The notes: generated by a model from the sequence alone, not told the origin. A stretch of 64,000 bases of DNA from an uncultured Acidobacteriaceae bacterium (GCA_963758785.1 CAVWXA010000002.1:652669-716668), one strand, 5' to 3'. Numbered from the stretch's first letter, positions 19,791-60,751 are shown. Translations and numbers: made by a program.

Positions 19791-20844
19791 ATGAGTGACG
19801 CGATGAAATCCGCGGTGAGCAGTTCTGCGCTGGAGGCGCGAGCAGTGCCGCGGCGCTGCTGATTCGCGGGCTGAGGAAGGCGTTTGCCGATGTGCAGGCG
19901 GTGGATGGGATCGATCTGGAGGTTGCGCCGGGCGAGTGCTTCGGGTTGCTGGGGCCGAATGGGGCGGGGAAGACGACGACGATTGAGATTTGCGAGGGGC
20001 TGACGGCGGCGGATGAAGGGGACGGTGGAGCTGCTGGGGCTGAACTGGCAGACGGCGCGCGACGAGCTGCGGCAGCGGATCGGGATTCAACTGCAGGAGA
20101 CGCAGTTTCCGGACAAGCTGACGGTGGAAGAGGTGCTGCGGCTGTTCCGGAGTTTTTATCGGCGCGGGATTACGGTGGATGAGTCGATCAAGCTGGCGCA
20201 GCTTGAAGAGAAGCGGCGGGCGCGCGTTGGCGGGCTGAGCGGCGGGCAGAAGCAGCGGCTGGCGATGGCGACGGCGCTGGTGGGCGATCCGGAGCTGCTG
20301 TTTCTGGATGAGCCGACGACGGGGCTCGATCCGCAGGCGCGGCGGCACTTGTGGGACCTGGTGGAGGAGCTGAAGCAGGCGGGGCGCACGATCATTTTGA
20401 CGACGCATTACATGGAGGAGGCGGAGCGGCTGTGCGATCGCGTGGCGATTATGGATCACGGGCAAGCGTGATTGCGCTGGGCACGCCGAAGGAACTGATT
20501 GCGACGGTGGGCGGCGAGGACATTGTGGAGTTTGCGGTGAGCGTAAAAGCAGCCTCAGGTCCATCGACTTCGGTCGCCGCGGCAACTTCCGCTCAGGATG
20601 ACAGTGGGTATAAAGTGCGTGGTGGTGTGGACATTGAGCGGCTCACGGCGATTCCGGGAGTGCAGTCGCATCGCGTGGATGACGGACTGCACCAGCTTTC
20701 AGTGAGCGAGCTGCACACGACGGTGCCGCGGATTTTTGCGGCGCTTGAGGAGCAGGGGCTGCACTTGAGCGAGTTCCGGACGCACTCGGCGACGCTCGAA
20801 GATGTGTTTGTGCGGCTGACGGGAAGGAACTGCGCGATGAATAA
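19791..20844 (+). CDS. ABC-2 exporter ATP-binding protein (frameshifted; contains in-frame repeat)
   Basis: [38 protein letters not shown]. Confidence 0.93.
20555..20603 (+). repeat. Family A repeat inside the ABC ATPase coding frame
   Basis: CAGGTCCATCGACTTCGGTCGCCGCGGCAACTTCCGCTCAGGATGACA encodes [16 protein letters not shown]. Confidence 0.9.
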
Positions 20845-41917: not shown

Positions 41918-42051
41918 AGCGTGTTTCAAAAATGGCTATGTGGATTCCGATTGTCTTACTCCAGGGGTTAAAACCCGTTGTTTTTATGGCCTCTTTCGGC
42001 CCGGCTGAAGCCGTGCCCTTGTTACAAAGCAGATTTTTGAAACCTGCTCTA
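41915..42051. mobile_element. MITE-like element with 19-bp TIRs carrying a family D repeat
   Basis: TAGAGCGTGTTTCAAAAAT ... ATTTTTGAAACCTGCTCTA (17/19); interior AGGGGTTAAAACCC...CGGCCCGGCTGAAGCCGTGCCC. Confidence 0.7.
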
Positions 42052-42104
42052 ACGATTGCTCCTTACAAACCGCCGCGTGAGCGATCGACTGTTCTCGCGG
42101 AGAA

Positions 42105-49615: not shown

Positions 49616-50673
49616 TTTGAAGATTCCTCGCCAGCTGCATTGGCTGGCGAAGCGCCAGAGCCTAGAGCTTTCTCAACGCGCGATTCGAGGCGCTCGAGTC
49701 GTTTAGCGAGCTCGGGCAGGCGCTGAAAGATGGTGACCGCGCGGAGCCAGATGCGATTGTCGAAGCCGGGCGAGCCGGAGATCATTTTGCCGGGCGGGAC
49801 ATCGTGCGAGACGGCGGATTGCGCGGTGAGGATGACGCCGTCGCCGACGGTGCAATGGCCGGCGATGCCCACCTGACCGGCGAGAATGACGTTGTTGCCG
49901 ATGACCGAGGAGCCGGCGAGGCCGGTTTGCGCGCAGAGGAGCGTGTCGTTGCCGACGCGCGAGCCGTGGCCGACCTGGACGAGATTGTCGACCTTGGTGC
50001 CGTCGCCGATTTCGGTTGCGCCGACTGTGGCGCGGTCGATGGTGGCGTTGGCCTGCACATCGACGCGGCTGCCGATGCGGACGGGGCCGGATTGCGGGAT
50101 TTTTTCCCAGTGGCCCTGATCGTTTTTGGAGAAGCCGAAGCCGTCAGCGCCGATGATGACGCCGTTTTCGAGCGTGACGTGGTCGCCGAGGATGCAGTTT
50201 TCGCGGACGACGGCGTGCGCGTGCGCGAAGAAGTGGCTGCCTATTTGAACGCCGGGATAGAGCACGACGTGCGGCAGGAGAGTGGCGTGCGGGCCGAGGC
50301 GAACGTTGGGGCCGACGACGGCGTAGGCGCCGATGTGCGCGCCGGGGCCGATGTCCGCCGTGGGATCGATGACGGCGGTGGGATGAATGCCGGGCGGGTA
50401 AGCCGGCGGCTGATAGAAGAGGCCGAGCGCGCGCTAGAAGGCGTGATAGGGATTCTTGATGCGGAGAGTTGCGGCGGAGATTTCCTGGAACTCGGGCTCG
50501 ACGAGGACGGCGGCGGCGTGGGTGGTGCGGGCGAGAGCGGTGTAGCGGGGATTGGCGACGAAGGTGATTTCGGTGGGACCGGCTTCTTCAATGCCCTTGA
50601 CGCCGGTGATTTCGAGGTCTGCGTTGCCGCGGAGTTCCGCGCCCAAGCGGCTTGCCAATTCACCGAGCTTCAT
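49612..50673 (-). CDS. lpxD: UDP-3-O-(3-hydroxyacyl)glucosamine N-acyltransferase, internal in-frame TAG at 50434-50436
   Basis: ITFVANPRY, hexapeptide repeats, IGADGFGF, KIPQSG, IDRAT, KVDNLVQVGH. Confidence 0.95.
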
Positions 50674-50757
50674 TGAGGTGATTGTAAAGGAACGGGCGAG
50701 ATGGGCGTCCTGGCGAACCGGGAATCCCAGGAGTTCGATTTGGAGGTCTGCATCCCA

Positions 50758-50816
50758 AAATGCAGGTCCTTCGACTCCGTTGGGCCCGAATTCGGGCCCA
50801 ACTCGCTCAGGATGAC
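50758..50816 (+). repeat. Family A repeat
   Basis: Inner perfect palindrome GTTGGGCCCGAATTCGGGCCCAAC. Confidence 0.9.
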
Positions 50817-50852
50817 CGCAGTATTTTTTATTGCAAAAATTAGGGACAGATA

Positions 50853-52396
50853 CTAGTGTGCGGGCGGTGCGGGATCGGTGCCGGCAGGTGCGACGGAGAA
50901 TGGTGTGGACTGCTGCGGTGGGGCTTGCAGCGTGTGCGCGGCGGACTGAGCGGCGTGGAGGGTTGCGCCGGGAATAATGCCGAGGACGAGCGTGGCGGCA
51001 GCGGCGAGAAGAAGGGCTGCACCGACTGCGACGCCGACCTGGGGCCTGGGAGGCGCAGTGCGGGCGACCGGTTGTGGCCGTCGAGCGGGCGCTGCGCGGA
51101 GACGAGGGCGAGACGCAGGTAATAAGCCGCGGCCAATCCTGAGTTGAGCAGGCCGATGATGGCGAGAGCGATGGCGCCGCCGCCGACCGCAGCGGTGAAG
51201 GAGTAGAACTTGCCGAAGAATCCGCCGGTGAAGGGAATGCCGATGAGCGAGATGAGGAAGAAGATGAGCAGGCTGCCGAGGAGCGGCGAGCGGTAGACGA
51301 GGCCGCGGAAGTCGTCGATGAGGGAAAGATGTTCGTCGTATCCGGCGACGAGGGTGATGACGGCGAAGATGCCGACGTTCATGGCGGCGTAGGCGGCGAT
51401 GTAAAAGCTGGCGGCGGCGATGCCGATGGCTAGCCGGATACTGCCGGCGAAGGCGGCGAGCAGATAGCCGGCGTGGGCGATGGACGGAGTAGGCCAGCAT
51501 GCGCTTGACGTTCTGCTGGCGCAGGGCGGCGAGGTTGCCGACGGTCATGGAAAGGACGGCGACGACCCAGAGCAGCGGCGCCCAGAGCGAACGGAGATTG
51601 GGGAACATTTCATAGACGACGCGGAGCAGCAGGGCGAAGGCGGCGGCTTTGGGCGCGGTGGAGAGCAGGGCGACGACGGGCGAGGGCGCGCCTTCGTAGA
51701 CGTCGGGCGTCCAGACGTGGAAGGGCGCGGCGGAAACTTTGAAGAGAATGCCGACCAGCATGAGCGCCAGCGCGGCGAGAACGAGGGATTGATTTTGCGC
51801 GGTGGGCGCGAGGTGGGCGATCTCGTAAATCTGCGTGGTTCCGGTGGCGCCGAAGATGAGCGCGATGCCGTAGAGCAGGAATGCGGTGGCGAAGGAGCCG
51901 AGCAGGAAATATTTGATGGCGGCTTCAGGGCCGCGGCCGGTCTGCTTGCGGTAGCCGGCGAGGATGTAGGTGGAGATGGAGGAGATTTCGAGAGCGATGA
52001 AGACGACGAGCAGCTCGACTGCGCCGGTGAGCAGGCACATGCCGACAGCGCCAAAGACAATGAGCGCGTAGAACTCGCCCTGGTGATGGCTGTGTTCGGG
52101 CAGCGTGTCGAGCGAGAGCAGCAGGGCAACGAGAACAATGCCGCAGATGAGGACGTGGAAGAAGACGGTGAAGGCGCTGGTTTCGACGGTGGAGAAGAAG
52201 CCGGTTCCCTGAGGCAGACGAGAGCTGCCAGAGGCTGGCCCAGAGGGCGAGGGTGGTGCCGATGGCGGCAACCCAGCCGAGCGGGCGGCGCGGCCACGCG
52301 GGCGGGAGCGAGGCGTCGATGAGCATGACGGCGACGCCGGTGAGCGTGAGGATGACCTCGGGGAGGATGCGGTAGATGTCGGGAACTGGAGTTCAC
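50853..52396 (-). CDS. nuoN: NADH-quinone oxidoreductase subunit N (frameshifted)
   Basis: [48 protein letters not shown]. Confidence 0.94.
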
Positions 52397-54069
52397 CGCT
52401 GGGCCTCCGCGTGTGGCGGAGATGCTGGGCGGCCTGGCGTGCGAGAAAAGGCAAATGCAGGTCCTTCGACTGCGGCCGGCTGGCGTGGACGGCCTTCGCT
52501 CAGGATGACAGTGGGTGTGACGGATCCTTCGACTCCCTGCGCTGCGCTCCGGTCGCTCAGGATGACAGCCGGATTTTGAGTGTTCTGACTGGTAGCGGAT
52601 TTTAGTGGCGGGGGATGGACGCCGGTTTGGATGGTGTTGAGCCAGAGATTCGGCGCGAGGCCCATGACGAGCATGAGGACAACGAGCGGCGTGAGGACGG
52701 CGAGCTCGCCGAAGCGCAGATCGGCGGAGGGCTTTGAGGCGGCGAGCGCGCTTTCAGGTCCGTAGAAGAGGCGCTGCACGAGCCAGAGCATGTAGGCCGC
52801 GCCGAGAATCACGCCGAGCGCAGCGGCGACGGCCCAGCCGCGGCTGACTGCCGGCGAAGGTGCTCGAGAGGATGATGAACTCGCCGATGAAGCCGCTGAG
52901 CATGGGCAGGCCGATCATGGCCAGCGTGGCGATGACGAAGTAGGTGGCCGCGCGCGGCAGCTTGGCGGCGAGACCGCCGTAAGCAGTCGATGAGGCTGGT
53001 GGCGTAGCGAACTCGAGCGCGCCGAGAAGCAGGAAGAGCGCGCCGTCGACGACGCCGTGCGAGAGGATCTGGTAGACAGCGCCGGTCCAGCCAGTAACGG
53101 TGAGGCCGTAGATGGCGAGAACGATGAGGCTGAGATGGCTGAGTGCGGCGAAGGCCAGCAGCCGCCAGAAATCGCGCTGCACGAGAGCGAGACACGCGCC
53201 GTAGAGAATGCCGATGACGGCGAGCGCGATGAGCAGCGGAGCGATGGCGCGGGCCTGGGCAGGGAAGAGCCCGACATGGAAGCGCAGCATGGAGTAGAGG
53301 CCGAGTTTGCCGGCGACGACCATGGCGAGCGCGACGGGAGCTTCGTTGTAGGTGTCGGCGAGCCAGCCGTGCAGCGGGAAGACAGGGACTTTGACGGCGA
53401 AGGCGAAGAGGAAAGCGAGCGCAACCCAGAAGAGCGCTCCGGCGGGAAGAACGCCGGTGGCGGTTTGGTATTGCAGGTCGGTGAAGTTGAAGGTGTGCGG
53501 TGCGCGCGTAGAGCCACAGGATGGCGACGAGCAGCGGGGCCGAAGGAATGAAGGTGAAGAGGAAGAATTTGAGCGCGGCCTTCGGGCCGTCTTTGCGGCC
53601 GTACATGGCGATGAGGATGGCCATGGGCACGAGCGAAAGCTCCCAGAAGCCGTAGTAGAGCATGAGGTCGAGCGAGATGAAGACGCCGAACATGGCGGTC
53701 TGCTGGACGAGAAAGAGCGAGTAGAAGACTTTGCGGCGGGTCTGGATGGCGTTCCAACTGGCGACGACGCCGATGGGCGCGAGCAGGCCGGCGAGGACGA
53801 CGAGCCAGAGGCTGAGGCCGTCGACGCCGACGTGGTAGAAGATGGCGGGATTCTCGATCCAGGGAATGATTGCTTTCAAATTGGAAGCCGGGCTGGCCGG
53901 GGACGAAGTGCGCGGGAAGATGCAGCGTGAGGAGGAAAGTGACGAGCGTGGTGGCGAGCGCGATCCAGTTGGGGAGCTTGGCGCGGTCGGGCACGAGCGC
54001 GACGAGGATTGCGCCGGCCAGCGGGACCAGCAGGATGAGGGTGAGAATGGATTGGTCGAGACTGGTCAT
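52393..54069 (-). CDS. nuoM: NADH-quinone oxidoreductase subunit M (frameshifted; repeat-derived C-terminal extension)
   Basis: [49 protein letters not shown]. Confidence 0.94.
52453..52567 (+). repeat. Two tandem family A repeats inside the nuoM coding frame
   Basis: 52453-52510 and 52522-52567; read on the minus strand as [15 protein letters not shown] and [17 protein letters not shown]. Confidence 0.92.
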
Positions 54070-56909: not shown

Positions 56910-57070
56910 ATTTTTCTACTGTTCGAGCTTGTGATGCATTCAGGCAGTTGGACAGGCGTTGTGAAAGCTGACTGACCCAGCGAATATTTTCGGAAAGTCC
57001 CTTCCGATTGTAAATGAGCACGGCAGCTCGTAAGGGTTGGCGATACTGCCCATGCGAGCGGAAAAGCAAC

Positions 57071-57118
57071 TGCAGATCCTTCGACTCGTCCGCTGCGGCG
57101 GACTCGCTCAGGATGACA
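57071..57118 (+). repeat. Family A repeat between nuoH and nuoJ
   Basis: GCAGATCCTTCGACT-GTCCGC/GCGGAC-CGCTCAGGATGACA. Confidence 0.9.
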
Positions 57119-57139
57119 GCGGCGGTTTGGAAACAGTTC

Positions 57140-58186
57140 TCATCGGTAAGCGAGCCAGAGGCTTGTTCCCACAATGTTGAGGATGGCGAGTGGGAGCAGG
57201 TATCGCCATCCGAAGGTCATTAACTGGTCATAGCGAAAGCGAGGTAAAGTTCCCCGCACCCAAACGTACAGACAGAGAAAAGCGAAGACCTTGATCACAA
57301 ACCAGAAGATGGGGAGAAACGAATTGACCACCGTGTTCTGGAGCGGCGGCATCAGGTCGCCGAGCGGGCTGGTCCAGCCGCCGAGAAAGAGGAGAGTGGC
57401 CACGCCGCCGACGTTGATCATGTTGCCGTACTCAGCCATGAAGAACATGGCGAATTTCATGGAGCTGTATTCGGTGTGATAGCCGCCGGTGAGCTCGCTT
57501 TCGGCTTCGGGCAGATCGAAGGGCGAGCGGTTGGTTTCGGCAAACGCGGCCATCAGGTAGATGAAGAAGGCGATGAATTGCAGGCCGCCGAAGATATTCC
57601 ACGTGACGACGCCGAGCGGGGCCTGCTGCTCGACGATGACACGGAGATTGAGCGAGCCAGCGCGCAGCACGACGCCGACGAGAGAAAGTCCGAGGGCCAG
57701 CTCGTAGCTGATCAACTGCGCCGAAGAGCGGAGCGAACCGAGCAGGGAATATTTATTGTTCGACGACCAGCCGGCAAGGGCGATGCCGTAGACACCAATT
57801 GAAGTGATGCCGAGGATGACGAGGAGGCCGATGTTGATGTTGGAGATTTCAAAAAGGTCGAAGCCGTGAGGGCCCATGCCGGGCGCACCGAAGGGAACGA
57901 CGGCAATGGAAATGAGCGCGCAGCCAAGAGAGATGATGGGCGCGAGAAGATAGACGGGGCGGTAGACGGCCGTTGGGATGATGTCTTCCTTGAGGAAGGA
58001 TTTGGCGCCGTCAACGAGCGGCTGCAAGAGGCCGAAGGGGCCGACGCGGCTGGGTCCCCAGCGATTTTGGATGCGGCCCACCAGCTTGCGTTCGAGGAGC
58101 ACGGTGTAGGCGATGCCCATGAGCATCACAACCGTGACCACGGCAACTTTGGCCAAGCTCCATAAAAAGAATTCAAGTAAGGTCAC
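57140..58186 (-). CDS. nuoH: NADH-quinone oxidoreductase subunit H
   Basis: ERKLVGRIQNRWGP, GLLQP, ETNRSPFDLPEAESEL, PRFRYDQLM. Confidence 0.97.
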   Translation of the reverse strand: MTLLEFFLWSLAKVAVVTVVMLMGIAYTVLLERKLVGRIQNRWGPSRVGPFGLLQPLVDGAKSFLKEDIIPTAVYRPVYLLAPIISLGCALISIAVVPFGAPGMGPHGFDLFEISNINIGLLVILGITSIGVYGIALAGWSSNNKYSLLGSLRSSAQLISYELALGLSLVGVVLRAGSLNLRVIVEQQAPLGVVTWNIFGGLQFIAFFIYLMAAFAETNRSPFDLPEAESELTGGYHTEYSSMKFAMFFMAEYGNMINVGGVATLLFLGGWTSPLGDLMPPLQNTVVNSFLPIFWFVIKVFAFLCLYVWVRGTLPRFRYDQLMTFGWRYLLPLAILNIVGTSLWLAYR

Positions 58187-60700: not shown

Positions 60701-60751
60701 CCGCAGATCCTTCGACTCGCTCCGCTGGCGCTGTGCTCGCTCAGGATGACA
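60701..60751 (+). repeat. Family A repeat between nuoF and nuoG
   Basis: CCGCAGATCCTTCGACT...CTCGCTCAGGATGACA. Confidence 0.88.

Follow-up and report, generated by a model that had tools for sequence, protein, structure and literature searches.

Two copies of a short repeat, named family A here, are read in frame as part of the C-terminal tail of NuoM, a subunit of respiratory complex I, in a stretch of 64,000 nucleotides from an uncultured Acidobacteriaceae bacterium (GCA_963758785.1, CAVWXA010000002.1:652669-716668; hereafter the window, whose source genome is denoted G000). Across the genus the same tail is a recurrent landing site for repeats, and their reading frame is under selection while their peptide evolves near-neutrally. 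The repeats are likely tolerated filler, and family A is likely spreading as selfish DNA. An earlier sequence-only reading of the window had proposed that NuoM incorporates, in frame, an acidobacterial repeat family whose copies are otherwise mostly intergenic, in the manner of the Rickettsia palindromic elements (RPEs), and this proposal is upheld. The junction of nuoM with nuoN has the following features.

52393..52812, minus strand: 3' open-frame piece of nuoM (last transmembrane helix and tail); the breaks upstream are likely assembly indels
52393..52650, minus strand: C-terminal tail of NuoM after the last transmembrane helix, 85 aa, terminating in EAQR* (the asterisk is the stop)
52522..52566, minus strand: core of family A copy 1, 45 nt, read as 15 residues, weak hairpin subtype
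52453..52509, minus strand: family A copy 2, with a core at 52509-52459 (51 nt) and a GCATTT tail, read as 19 residues
52393..52408, minus strand: GGAGG Shine-Dalgarno sequence within the EAQR codons, and GTGA overlap of the nuoM stop with the nuoN start
50853..52396, minus strand: nuoN, frameshifted in the assembly, with the first extra base at about 52390

The two cores (GTCATCCTGAGC..GTCGAAGGAYCY, at 52566..52522 and 52509..52459) lie, as the earlier reading had held, inside an open nuoM frame, which runs uninterrupted from 52812 to 52393 on the minus strand and whose first 66 residues match NuoM models. The EAQR* end, the GTGA overlap and the upstream GGAGG were likewise confirmed and are found in relatives as well, with GGAGG located 7-8 nt 5' of the nuoN GTG. 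The tail of 85 aa compares with mostly 37-43 aa in repeat-free relatives. Solved NuoM homologs match a 570-aa relative no further than residue 475-484, and the repeat peptide lies beyond this region. An AlphaFold model of a repeat-bearing NuoM (17 sequences) was uninformative, with a mean pLDDT (predicted local distance difference test) of 45.7, and was not used. An Rfam scan of 50600-53000 gave a single chance match (E 0.48).

Compared with each of three relatives, nuoM upstream of this frame is broken by single-base indels at about 53867, 53497, 53009, 52988 and 52852, and one extra base at about 52390 puts nuoN out of frame directly after its GTG. These frameshifts look like sequencing errors of the assembly, which has a completeness of 80.65% for a 6.7-Mb genome. 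In the repeat-bearing part, 6-nt gaps are the sole gap differences from L128, the closest repeat-bearing relative. A short-read contig from an independent soil run (X2) spans 52448-52739, including both repeats, with 13 substitutions and 0 gaps, and two others (X1, 52487-52684; X7, 52477-52642) have 0 gaps each. No contig at 90% or above covers 52405-52434, so that the last 15 nuoM codons rest on homology, namely on the conserved EAQR*. Relatives rated 97-100% complete (e.g. G020 and G157) also carry in-frame copies. Among the sequencing-run matches listed there was no RNA run, and all shares were at most 0.12.

The layout of family A is GTCATCCTGAG, a variable central hairpin, and GTCGAAGGAYC. 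G000 contains 108 full regular-expression copies and about 160 nhmmer matches, and a reversed control pattern gave 0 matches in five other genomes. Both nuoM copies and most of the 108 begin with TGTC, and a GGTC subset is present, as read off the copy listing and not tallied. Most copies have a long internal hairpin, and short variants measure 26-27 nt. Neighboring copies in G000, single or in tandem, have the same orientation. The term palindromic, used in the sequence-only reading, suits the family better than the two nuoM copies: folding of the stretch over the intergenic copy after nuoN reaches z = -4.07 versus shuffles, whereas the nuoM copies show no folding advantage over shuffled sequences (z = -0.38 and +0.87). 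The median hairpin energy is -0.19 kcal/mol per nt in nuoM copies and -0.33 in copies elsewhere, the nuoM hairpins thus being the weaker. Five copies lie inside or adjoining the nuo operon of the window. Further copies in the window are listed below.

50764..50816, minus strand: family A copy 3' of nuoN, intergenic, strong hairpin
57074..57117, minus strand: family A copy between nuoH and nuoJ, intergenic
60705..60750, minus strand: family A copy 5' of a nuoG-like open reading frame (ORF), intergenic
20548..20606, minus strand: family A copy, antisense and in frame within a plus-strand ABC ATPase gene, read as 15 residues (G000:C2:673216)

Around the second of these copies (57000-57140), nuoH is followed by nuoJ with the family A copy in the gap, and the ORF list holds no nuoI-sized ORF between them; nuoI may be located elsewhere. 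A family B-like repeat, with QGLKP..PAEAVPLL in one frame, lies directly 3' of an rmlC-like gene at 41950-42100. Elsewhere in G000, a tandem array of five family A copies has an 86-nt period (C15:1129076-1129420), and one four-repeat block recurs near the ends of three contigs (C13:180615-182028, C17:1550-2968 and C18:1246-2659). The latter is probably an assembly duplication that slightly inflates copy counts.

The NuoM core was matched in 370 of 401 genus-level genomes (Terracidiphilus group). A total of 129 loci were taken, comprising the window, 20 loci and 108 further ones; the sample is biased to close kin because the further loci were mostly top-ranked. Among the 121 parsed tails, a repeat was detected by hidden Markov models in 32: family A in 27 (1-4 copies, all sense), family B only in 4 and family C in 1, leaving 89 without a detected repeat. 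Recheck of the eight unparsed loci gave nothing for L184, an upstream frameshift in L020, ordinary repeat-free tails in four, a reverse A-like relic in frame in L019, and a frameshift within an A copy in L119. Between TIQTGVHPP and E[A/G/V]QR*, the tail thus defined holds 0-4 family A copies and other repeat families across the genus, and family A presence changes 15 times on the nuoM gene tree. Many A-bearing tails have the common flanks xSVILS..AVAFS(N)AG; L118 and L003 have the downstream flank in common with different cores. The clean, lineage-specific insertion of about 40 aa that the sequence-only reading had suggested looking for was not found; the site is a recurrent landing place for several families, with no clean boundaries. 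Among 28 nuoM-like tails from other genera of the family (one locus left out, two rows possibly not nuoM), only 1 weak family A match was obtained (L442, E 0.0045), so that the hotspot was not found widely among them.

A separate tail type, V/I-x-L-x-G-x-CAAA-x-YEAP..KCES, was observed in L004, L005, L153, L195 and L197, which are located on distant branches; its two cysteines are conserved. With L004 dropped by the pattern, the four that were compared give six pairs, in five of which nonsynonymous divergence (pN, 0.14-0.22) is below synonymous divergence (pS, 0.40-0.69), L197/L005 being the pair that departs. The segment matches family A at 28-30 of 54 bases. Repeat-free control tails reach up to 31, and since the match falls within this range a repeat origin of the type is unproven.

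Selection on the frame is apparent from repeat lengths. All 32 family A copies in the nuoM tails of relatives, which represent 28 distinct cores of 42-57 nt, have lengths divisible by three, as do both window copies; among the other family A copies of G000, 46 of 131 do. The -4 overlap of the nuoM stop with the nuoN start is kept in 30 of the 32 repeat-bearing tails, and the window stop has the same position; of the alternative frames, +1 is open in only 3 of the 32 tails and +2 in 15. Repeat-free tails keep the overlap in 85 of 89 cases; among the remaining four, the overlap is with a longer nuoN start in two and amounts to 1 nt in another, and the last terminates early. The peptide behaves differently from the frame. 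From ten hand-picked pairs, with the core value inflated by one misaligned pair, pN/pS is 0.81 for the repeat (10 pairs), 0.97 for the downstream tail (5 pairs) and 0.23 for the NuoM core, and coding copies show no third-position enrichment of substitutions. Lengths of 3n in all tail copies together with near-neutral pN/pS indicate selection that acts on the frame and largely spares the repeat peptide, whose evolution is near-neutral. The notion of new protein sequence in a functional sense, put forward earlier, is not supported for a near-neutral peptide beyond the region matched by solved structures. In the same pairs, pS is 0.16 for the repeat versus 0.38 for the core, which fits recent insertion or homogenization. 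The selection on frame suggests that repeat-bearing tails are translated.

The repeats are also polarized with respect to base composition. In G000 the C-rich strand carries 147 of the 156 copies of family A, 55 of the 57 of family C and 135 of the 163 of family B, and in five other genomes it carries 46 of 53 copies. GC skew is strong (up to +0.29 per 2 kb; window 16000-56000), and its sign flips every 50-200 kb genome-wide. The third-position skew of the window genes flips with gene strand, which makes the skew a property of the strand rather than of transcription. A simple two-replichore pattern was considered and rejected: orientation looks patchy, even in single-contig genomes. As orientation tracks the local GC skew, genes on the C-rich strand, such as nuoM, mostly receive the VILS..VEGP peptide, and those on the G-rich strand mostly GPST..AQDD. 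The nuoM genes are C-rich in 104 of 121 loci, and reverse family B inserts occur in three nuoM genes (L014, L194 and L199), each on the G-rich strand. For IS200, the available portion of one report attributes an orientation bias relative to local GC skew to single-stranded insertion on the lagging strand (PMC3971601). Insertion of this type may apply to the present repeats as well.

Close linkage to small GIY-YIG genes is a further feature of family A. Of five GIY-YIG matches in G000, three are single-domain ORFs of 85-112 aa with family A within 500 nt. At 29 homologous loci across the family, family A was found within 500 nt in 25, on both sides in 21, and in the outer-flank control in 4. 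By comparison, 0 of 7 Y1 transposase matches in G000 have a copy within 1 kb (families A and C covered). The small nuclease passes the Pfam GIY-YIG cut-off and has no match in NCBIfam or the PDB. A similar arrangement, in which a small single-domain GIY-YIG gene is flanked, often on both sides, by hairpin repeats starting with HGTC, is described for the Ssn/SRM system (Chenal et al. 2025, PMC11893778, as far as its accessible text goes). In the table of that paper, T. gabretensis and two Occallatibacter genomes are marked as having an ssnA homolog, and these genomes show no SRM enrichment (fold 0.8-1.0).

The tail of NuoM is not the only protein segment that receives these repeats. A codon-usage screen of G000 was used to find further in-frame copies, whose hosts include PriA, TrmD and MnmG (NCBIfam, above cut-off) as well as the CCA-adding enzyme, a UbiD-family protein and the ABC ATPase at 20548-20606 of the window (below cut-off). 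In 32 relatives, the loops of TrmD, PriA and the CCA-adding enzyme vary in length and hold families A, B or C. Family A occurs in the TrmD loop in 5 of 29 readable loci (all 29 in frame), in the PriA loop in 5 of 23 (two loci frameshifted), and in the CCA loop in 13 of 26 (one frameshifted). Copies share the length class 1 mod 3 in PriA (5/5, cores 43-55 nt), the CCA-adding enzyme (11/12) and TrmD (4/5). The TrmD insert falls in a short connector, between residues 79 and 85 of the E. coli chain 1p9p. In L250, L252, L263 and L265, it is short tandem words, and not families A-C, that lengthen the TrmD loop, to as many as 169 codons. A further loop, between GHIHAVL and LVVSGGHT (L306-L334), is part of a gene that is presumed from its motifs to be TsaD; it spans 20-96 codons, is in frame in 25 of 26 rows, and contains families A, B and C along with another hairpin family. 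MnmG (L238, G000:C3:613517) and three other proteins, namely an Fe-S oxidoreductase, one that is UvrC-like and one without an NCBIfam match (L239, L240 and L243), also have in-frame copies of family C or B.

A VILS..VEGP profile matched 349 proteins, and 115 of the best 120, from about 20 protein families, contain the motif. Under tentative family labels taken from Pfam accessions and source names, these 115 include 21 NuoM, 9 Asn/Lys-tRNA synthetases, 8 GlmS, 7 UvrC, 7 CysG, 6 PEP carboxylases, 4 UvrA and 4 PyrB. A GPST..AQDD profile gave 205 matches (HMMER, cluster representatives), the best 150 being mostly short ORFs, and a single-sequence search with the window peptide gave 2 matches among 28 candidates. 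Of the peptide motifs suggested from the window alone, VILSE..VEGP/SKDL and GPST..AQDD do occur in many housekeeping proteins, whereas the observed copies starting with RSFD end in AQDD and not in SLRMT.

These observations are probably best explained by selfish repeats that are spread by an Ssn-like, strand-specific nicking activity and are kept by genes where a linker is tolerated and the frame is preserved. The GIY-YIG proteins would act as Ssn nucleases and introduce a nick into the repeat where it is single-stranded, on one of the replication strands at the fork. Such a nick could favor insertions and tandem duplications and allow copies to swap the central hairpin that lies between their fixed end motifs. 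Within genes, alleles would persist only if the protein tolerates the linker and the frame remains intact. In nuoM, selection would remove only alleles that shift or close the frame, through translational coupling to nuoN; selection against frame-breaking alleles is suggested because the stop overlaps the nuoN start and the Shine-Dalgarno sequence lies in the last codons. The tail likely tolerates repeats since its sequence is free while its frame must reach the nuoN start. It would extend flexibly from the complex I fold, probably into the periplasm, this side being assumed from the E. coli structure. The accessible part of PMC3274701 does not settle the membrane side.

Several points weigh against this explanation. 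Of 106 family A copies, 0 fit the degenerate SRM pattern as published, and in the available text on Ssn only cleavage is demonstrated; a transposon-like role is a hypothesis there, and mobilization is not shown (PMC11893778). The reading of the patchy skew as fork direction is taken over from the IS200 report (PMC3971601) and may not hold here. The tree behind the 15 changes of family A presence is that of a 1.3-kb gene with weak nodes, kin are not independent, and many nuoM copies have common flanks; part of the pattern may reflect a single old insertion followed by loss or recombination. Filled and empty alleles, being too diverged, show neither clean insertion boundaries nor target duplication. 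The pN/pS pairs were few and chosen by hand. The overlap with nuoN is lost in 2 of 34 repeat-bearing tails, by a stop within a family B repeat in L134 and by the family A frameshift of L119; both are few-contig assemblies and protein P0037 has the L119 type in frame, but the two may be real exceptions to the overlap rule. Finally, a strict codon phase, always VILS or AQDD, had to be dropped because HPER-phase coding copies occur (L326 and L374).

An alternative that seems unlikely is that one or a few old insertions in the nuoM tail have been inherited, duplicated, lost and shuffled by homologous recombination, with no dedicated mobilizer active now or with one other than the Ssn-like nuclease. 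The common flanks of A-bearing tails, the unclean boundaries versus empty alleles and the failure of the strict SRM pattern would fit this history, and identical repeat-free tail types in different gene-tree clades suggest recombination. Against it stand the occurrence of different families and both orientations at one site, orientation that follows the skew of the host gene, the low pS of the repeat relative to the core, the like behavior at TrmD, PriA, the CCA-adding enzyme and TsaD, and the tight linkage of family A to small GIY-YIG genes.

Exaptation, with a role for the tail in assembling or stabilizing complex I or for the repeat hairpin in adjusting the translation of nuoN, appears improbable. 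It could draw on the CAAA..YEAP tail type with its mostly lower pN than pS and its two kept cysteines and on the five family A copies in or beside the nuo operon of the window. However, recognizable repeats have a pN/pS of 0.81, no repeat is detected in 89 of 121 tails, the repeat origin of the CAAA..YEAP type is unproven at a match no better than controls, and the hairpins of nuoM copies are weaker than those elsewhere. The idea that the open frame is false and the repeats lie in an untranslated gap of an artefact or pseudogene, for which the at least five single-base indels in nuoM, several in nuoN and the modest completeness might be cited, is largely refuted and hardly credible, given gap-free short-read contigs from three runs of two studies that span the repeats, a frame linking the conserved core with the conserved EAQR* end, in-frame copies in 97-100% complete relatives, and an extra base at 52849/52850 that is absent from the contigs of other runs.

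Family A can be compared with several known systems. The CGTC-tagged repetitive extragenic palindromes (REPs), including RPE-4 and RPE-6 of R. conorii, have intragenic copies, as do GTAG REPs (Di Nocera, De Gregorio and Rocco 2013, PMC3733652, in its accessible part), and file 3 of that paper includes, for R. conorii, copies in subunits C and L of NADH dehydrogenase, in tRNA-modifying enzymes and in tRNA synthetases. CGTC repeats that are read in frame have therefore already been published, Rickettsia NuoC and NuoL included, and complex I is not the new setting that the sequence-only reading took it to be. Family A resembles the CGTC REPs, whose terminal tag has the variants TGTC and CCTC, in its TGTC/CGTC-type end, short palindromic unit, mostly intergenic location with a minority in frame, and lack of a linked Y1 transposase; no dedicated transposase was found for CGTC repeats either, according to the part of the paper available. 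Those REPs have an 8-9-bp stem starting at the tag, a 4-5-nt loop and a short CCA-like tail, a layout to which the 26-27-nt variants of family A conform roughly when set against the description; in most family A copies the two fixed motifs are instead separated by a long hairpin that is exchangeable (42-57 nt in coding copies). CGTC REPs are predominantly head-to-head dimers, whereas family A copies are single or tandem in one orientation. Shared sites are reported for Xanthomonas recB alone in the accessible text (PMC3733652), whereas several families repeatedly use the same loops here. Acidobacteria are named in that text for TIRYT genes only, and its four text supplements contain no acidobacterial name.

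RPE-1 of the intracellular parasite Rickettsia is about 150 bp long and encodes a conserved peptide, as stated in an excerpted summary (PMC10969869). It is a selfish palindromic repeat, as family A probably is, and both sit in frame, away from conserved cores, in housekeeping genes that are unrelated to one another. Family A differs in its units of 42-57 nt, its variable peptide read in both orientations, its free-living soil and peat Acidobacteriaceae hosts, and the coexistence of filled and empty alleles across the genus; the comparison is one of published descriptions. The Ssn/SRM account, as far as it is accessible, mentions neither coding copies nor strand polarity (PMC11893778). Orientation bias relative to local GC skew is shared with IS200/IS605 and the REPtrons (RAYT/TIRYT), but REPtron repeats flank a Y1 transposase, whereas the gene linked to family A encodes a GIY-YIG nuclease. 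Terminal inverted repeats and target-site duplication characterize miniature inverted-repeat transposable elements; the alignments of family A, too diverged for this purpose, show no duplication. Literature searches, with thin coverage of subscription papers and two supplements of PMC11893778 excluded, returned no description of in-frame repeats in Acidobacteria, in agreement with what had been presumed from the window.

The current work thus describes a population-scale counterpart of the Rickettsia coding palindromes in free-living soil bacteria, in more than 100 genomes, in which filled and empty alleles at the same sites make neutrality and frame selection measurable. The hotspots map sites at which essential proteins tolerate insertion, namely in the NuoM tail, TrmD, PriA, the CCA-adding enzyme and TsaD. 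The repeats also generate many short spurious ORFs in protein databases. The Ssn-like link, together with strand polarity, makes the question of how CGTC repeats spread a testable one. It is possible, and offered tentatively, that Ssn-type GIY-YIG nucleases are the mobilizers that had been missing for CGTC-type repeats; in Terracidiphilus they would drive strand-polarized insertion and exchange of hairpin cores at the fork, whose direction would set whether a gene receives VILS..VEGP or GPST..AQDD as its linker peptide. Coupled tails and permissive loops of essential enzymes may then act as genus-wide sinks in which linker sequence continually arises anew, with occasional fixation by selection at the protein level.

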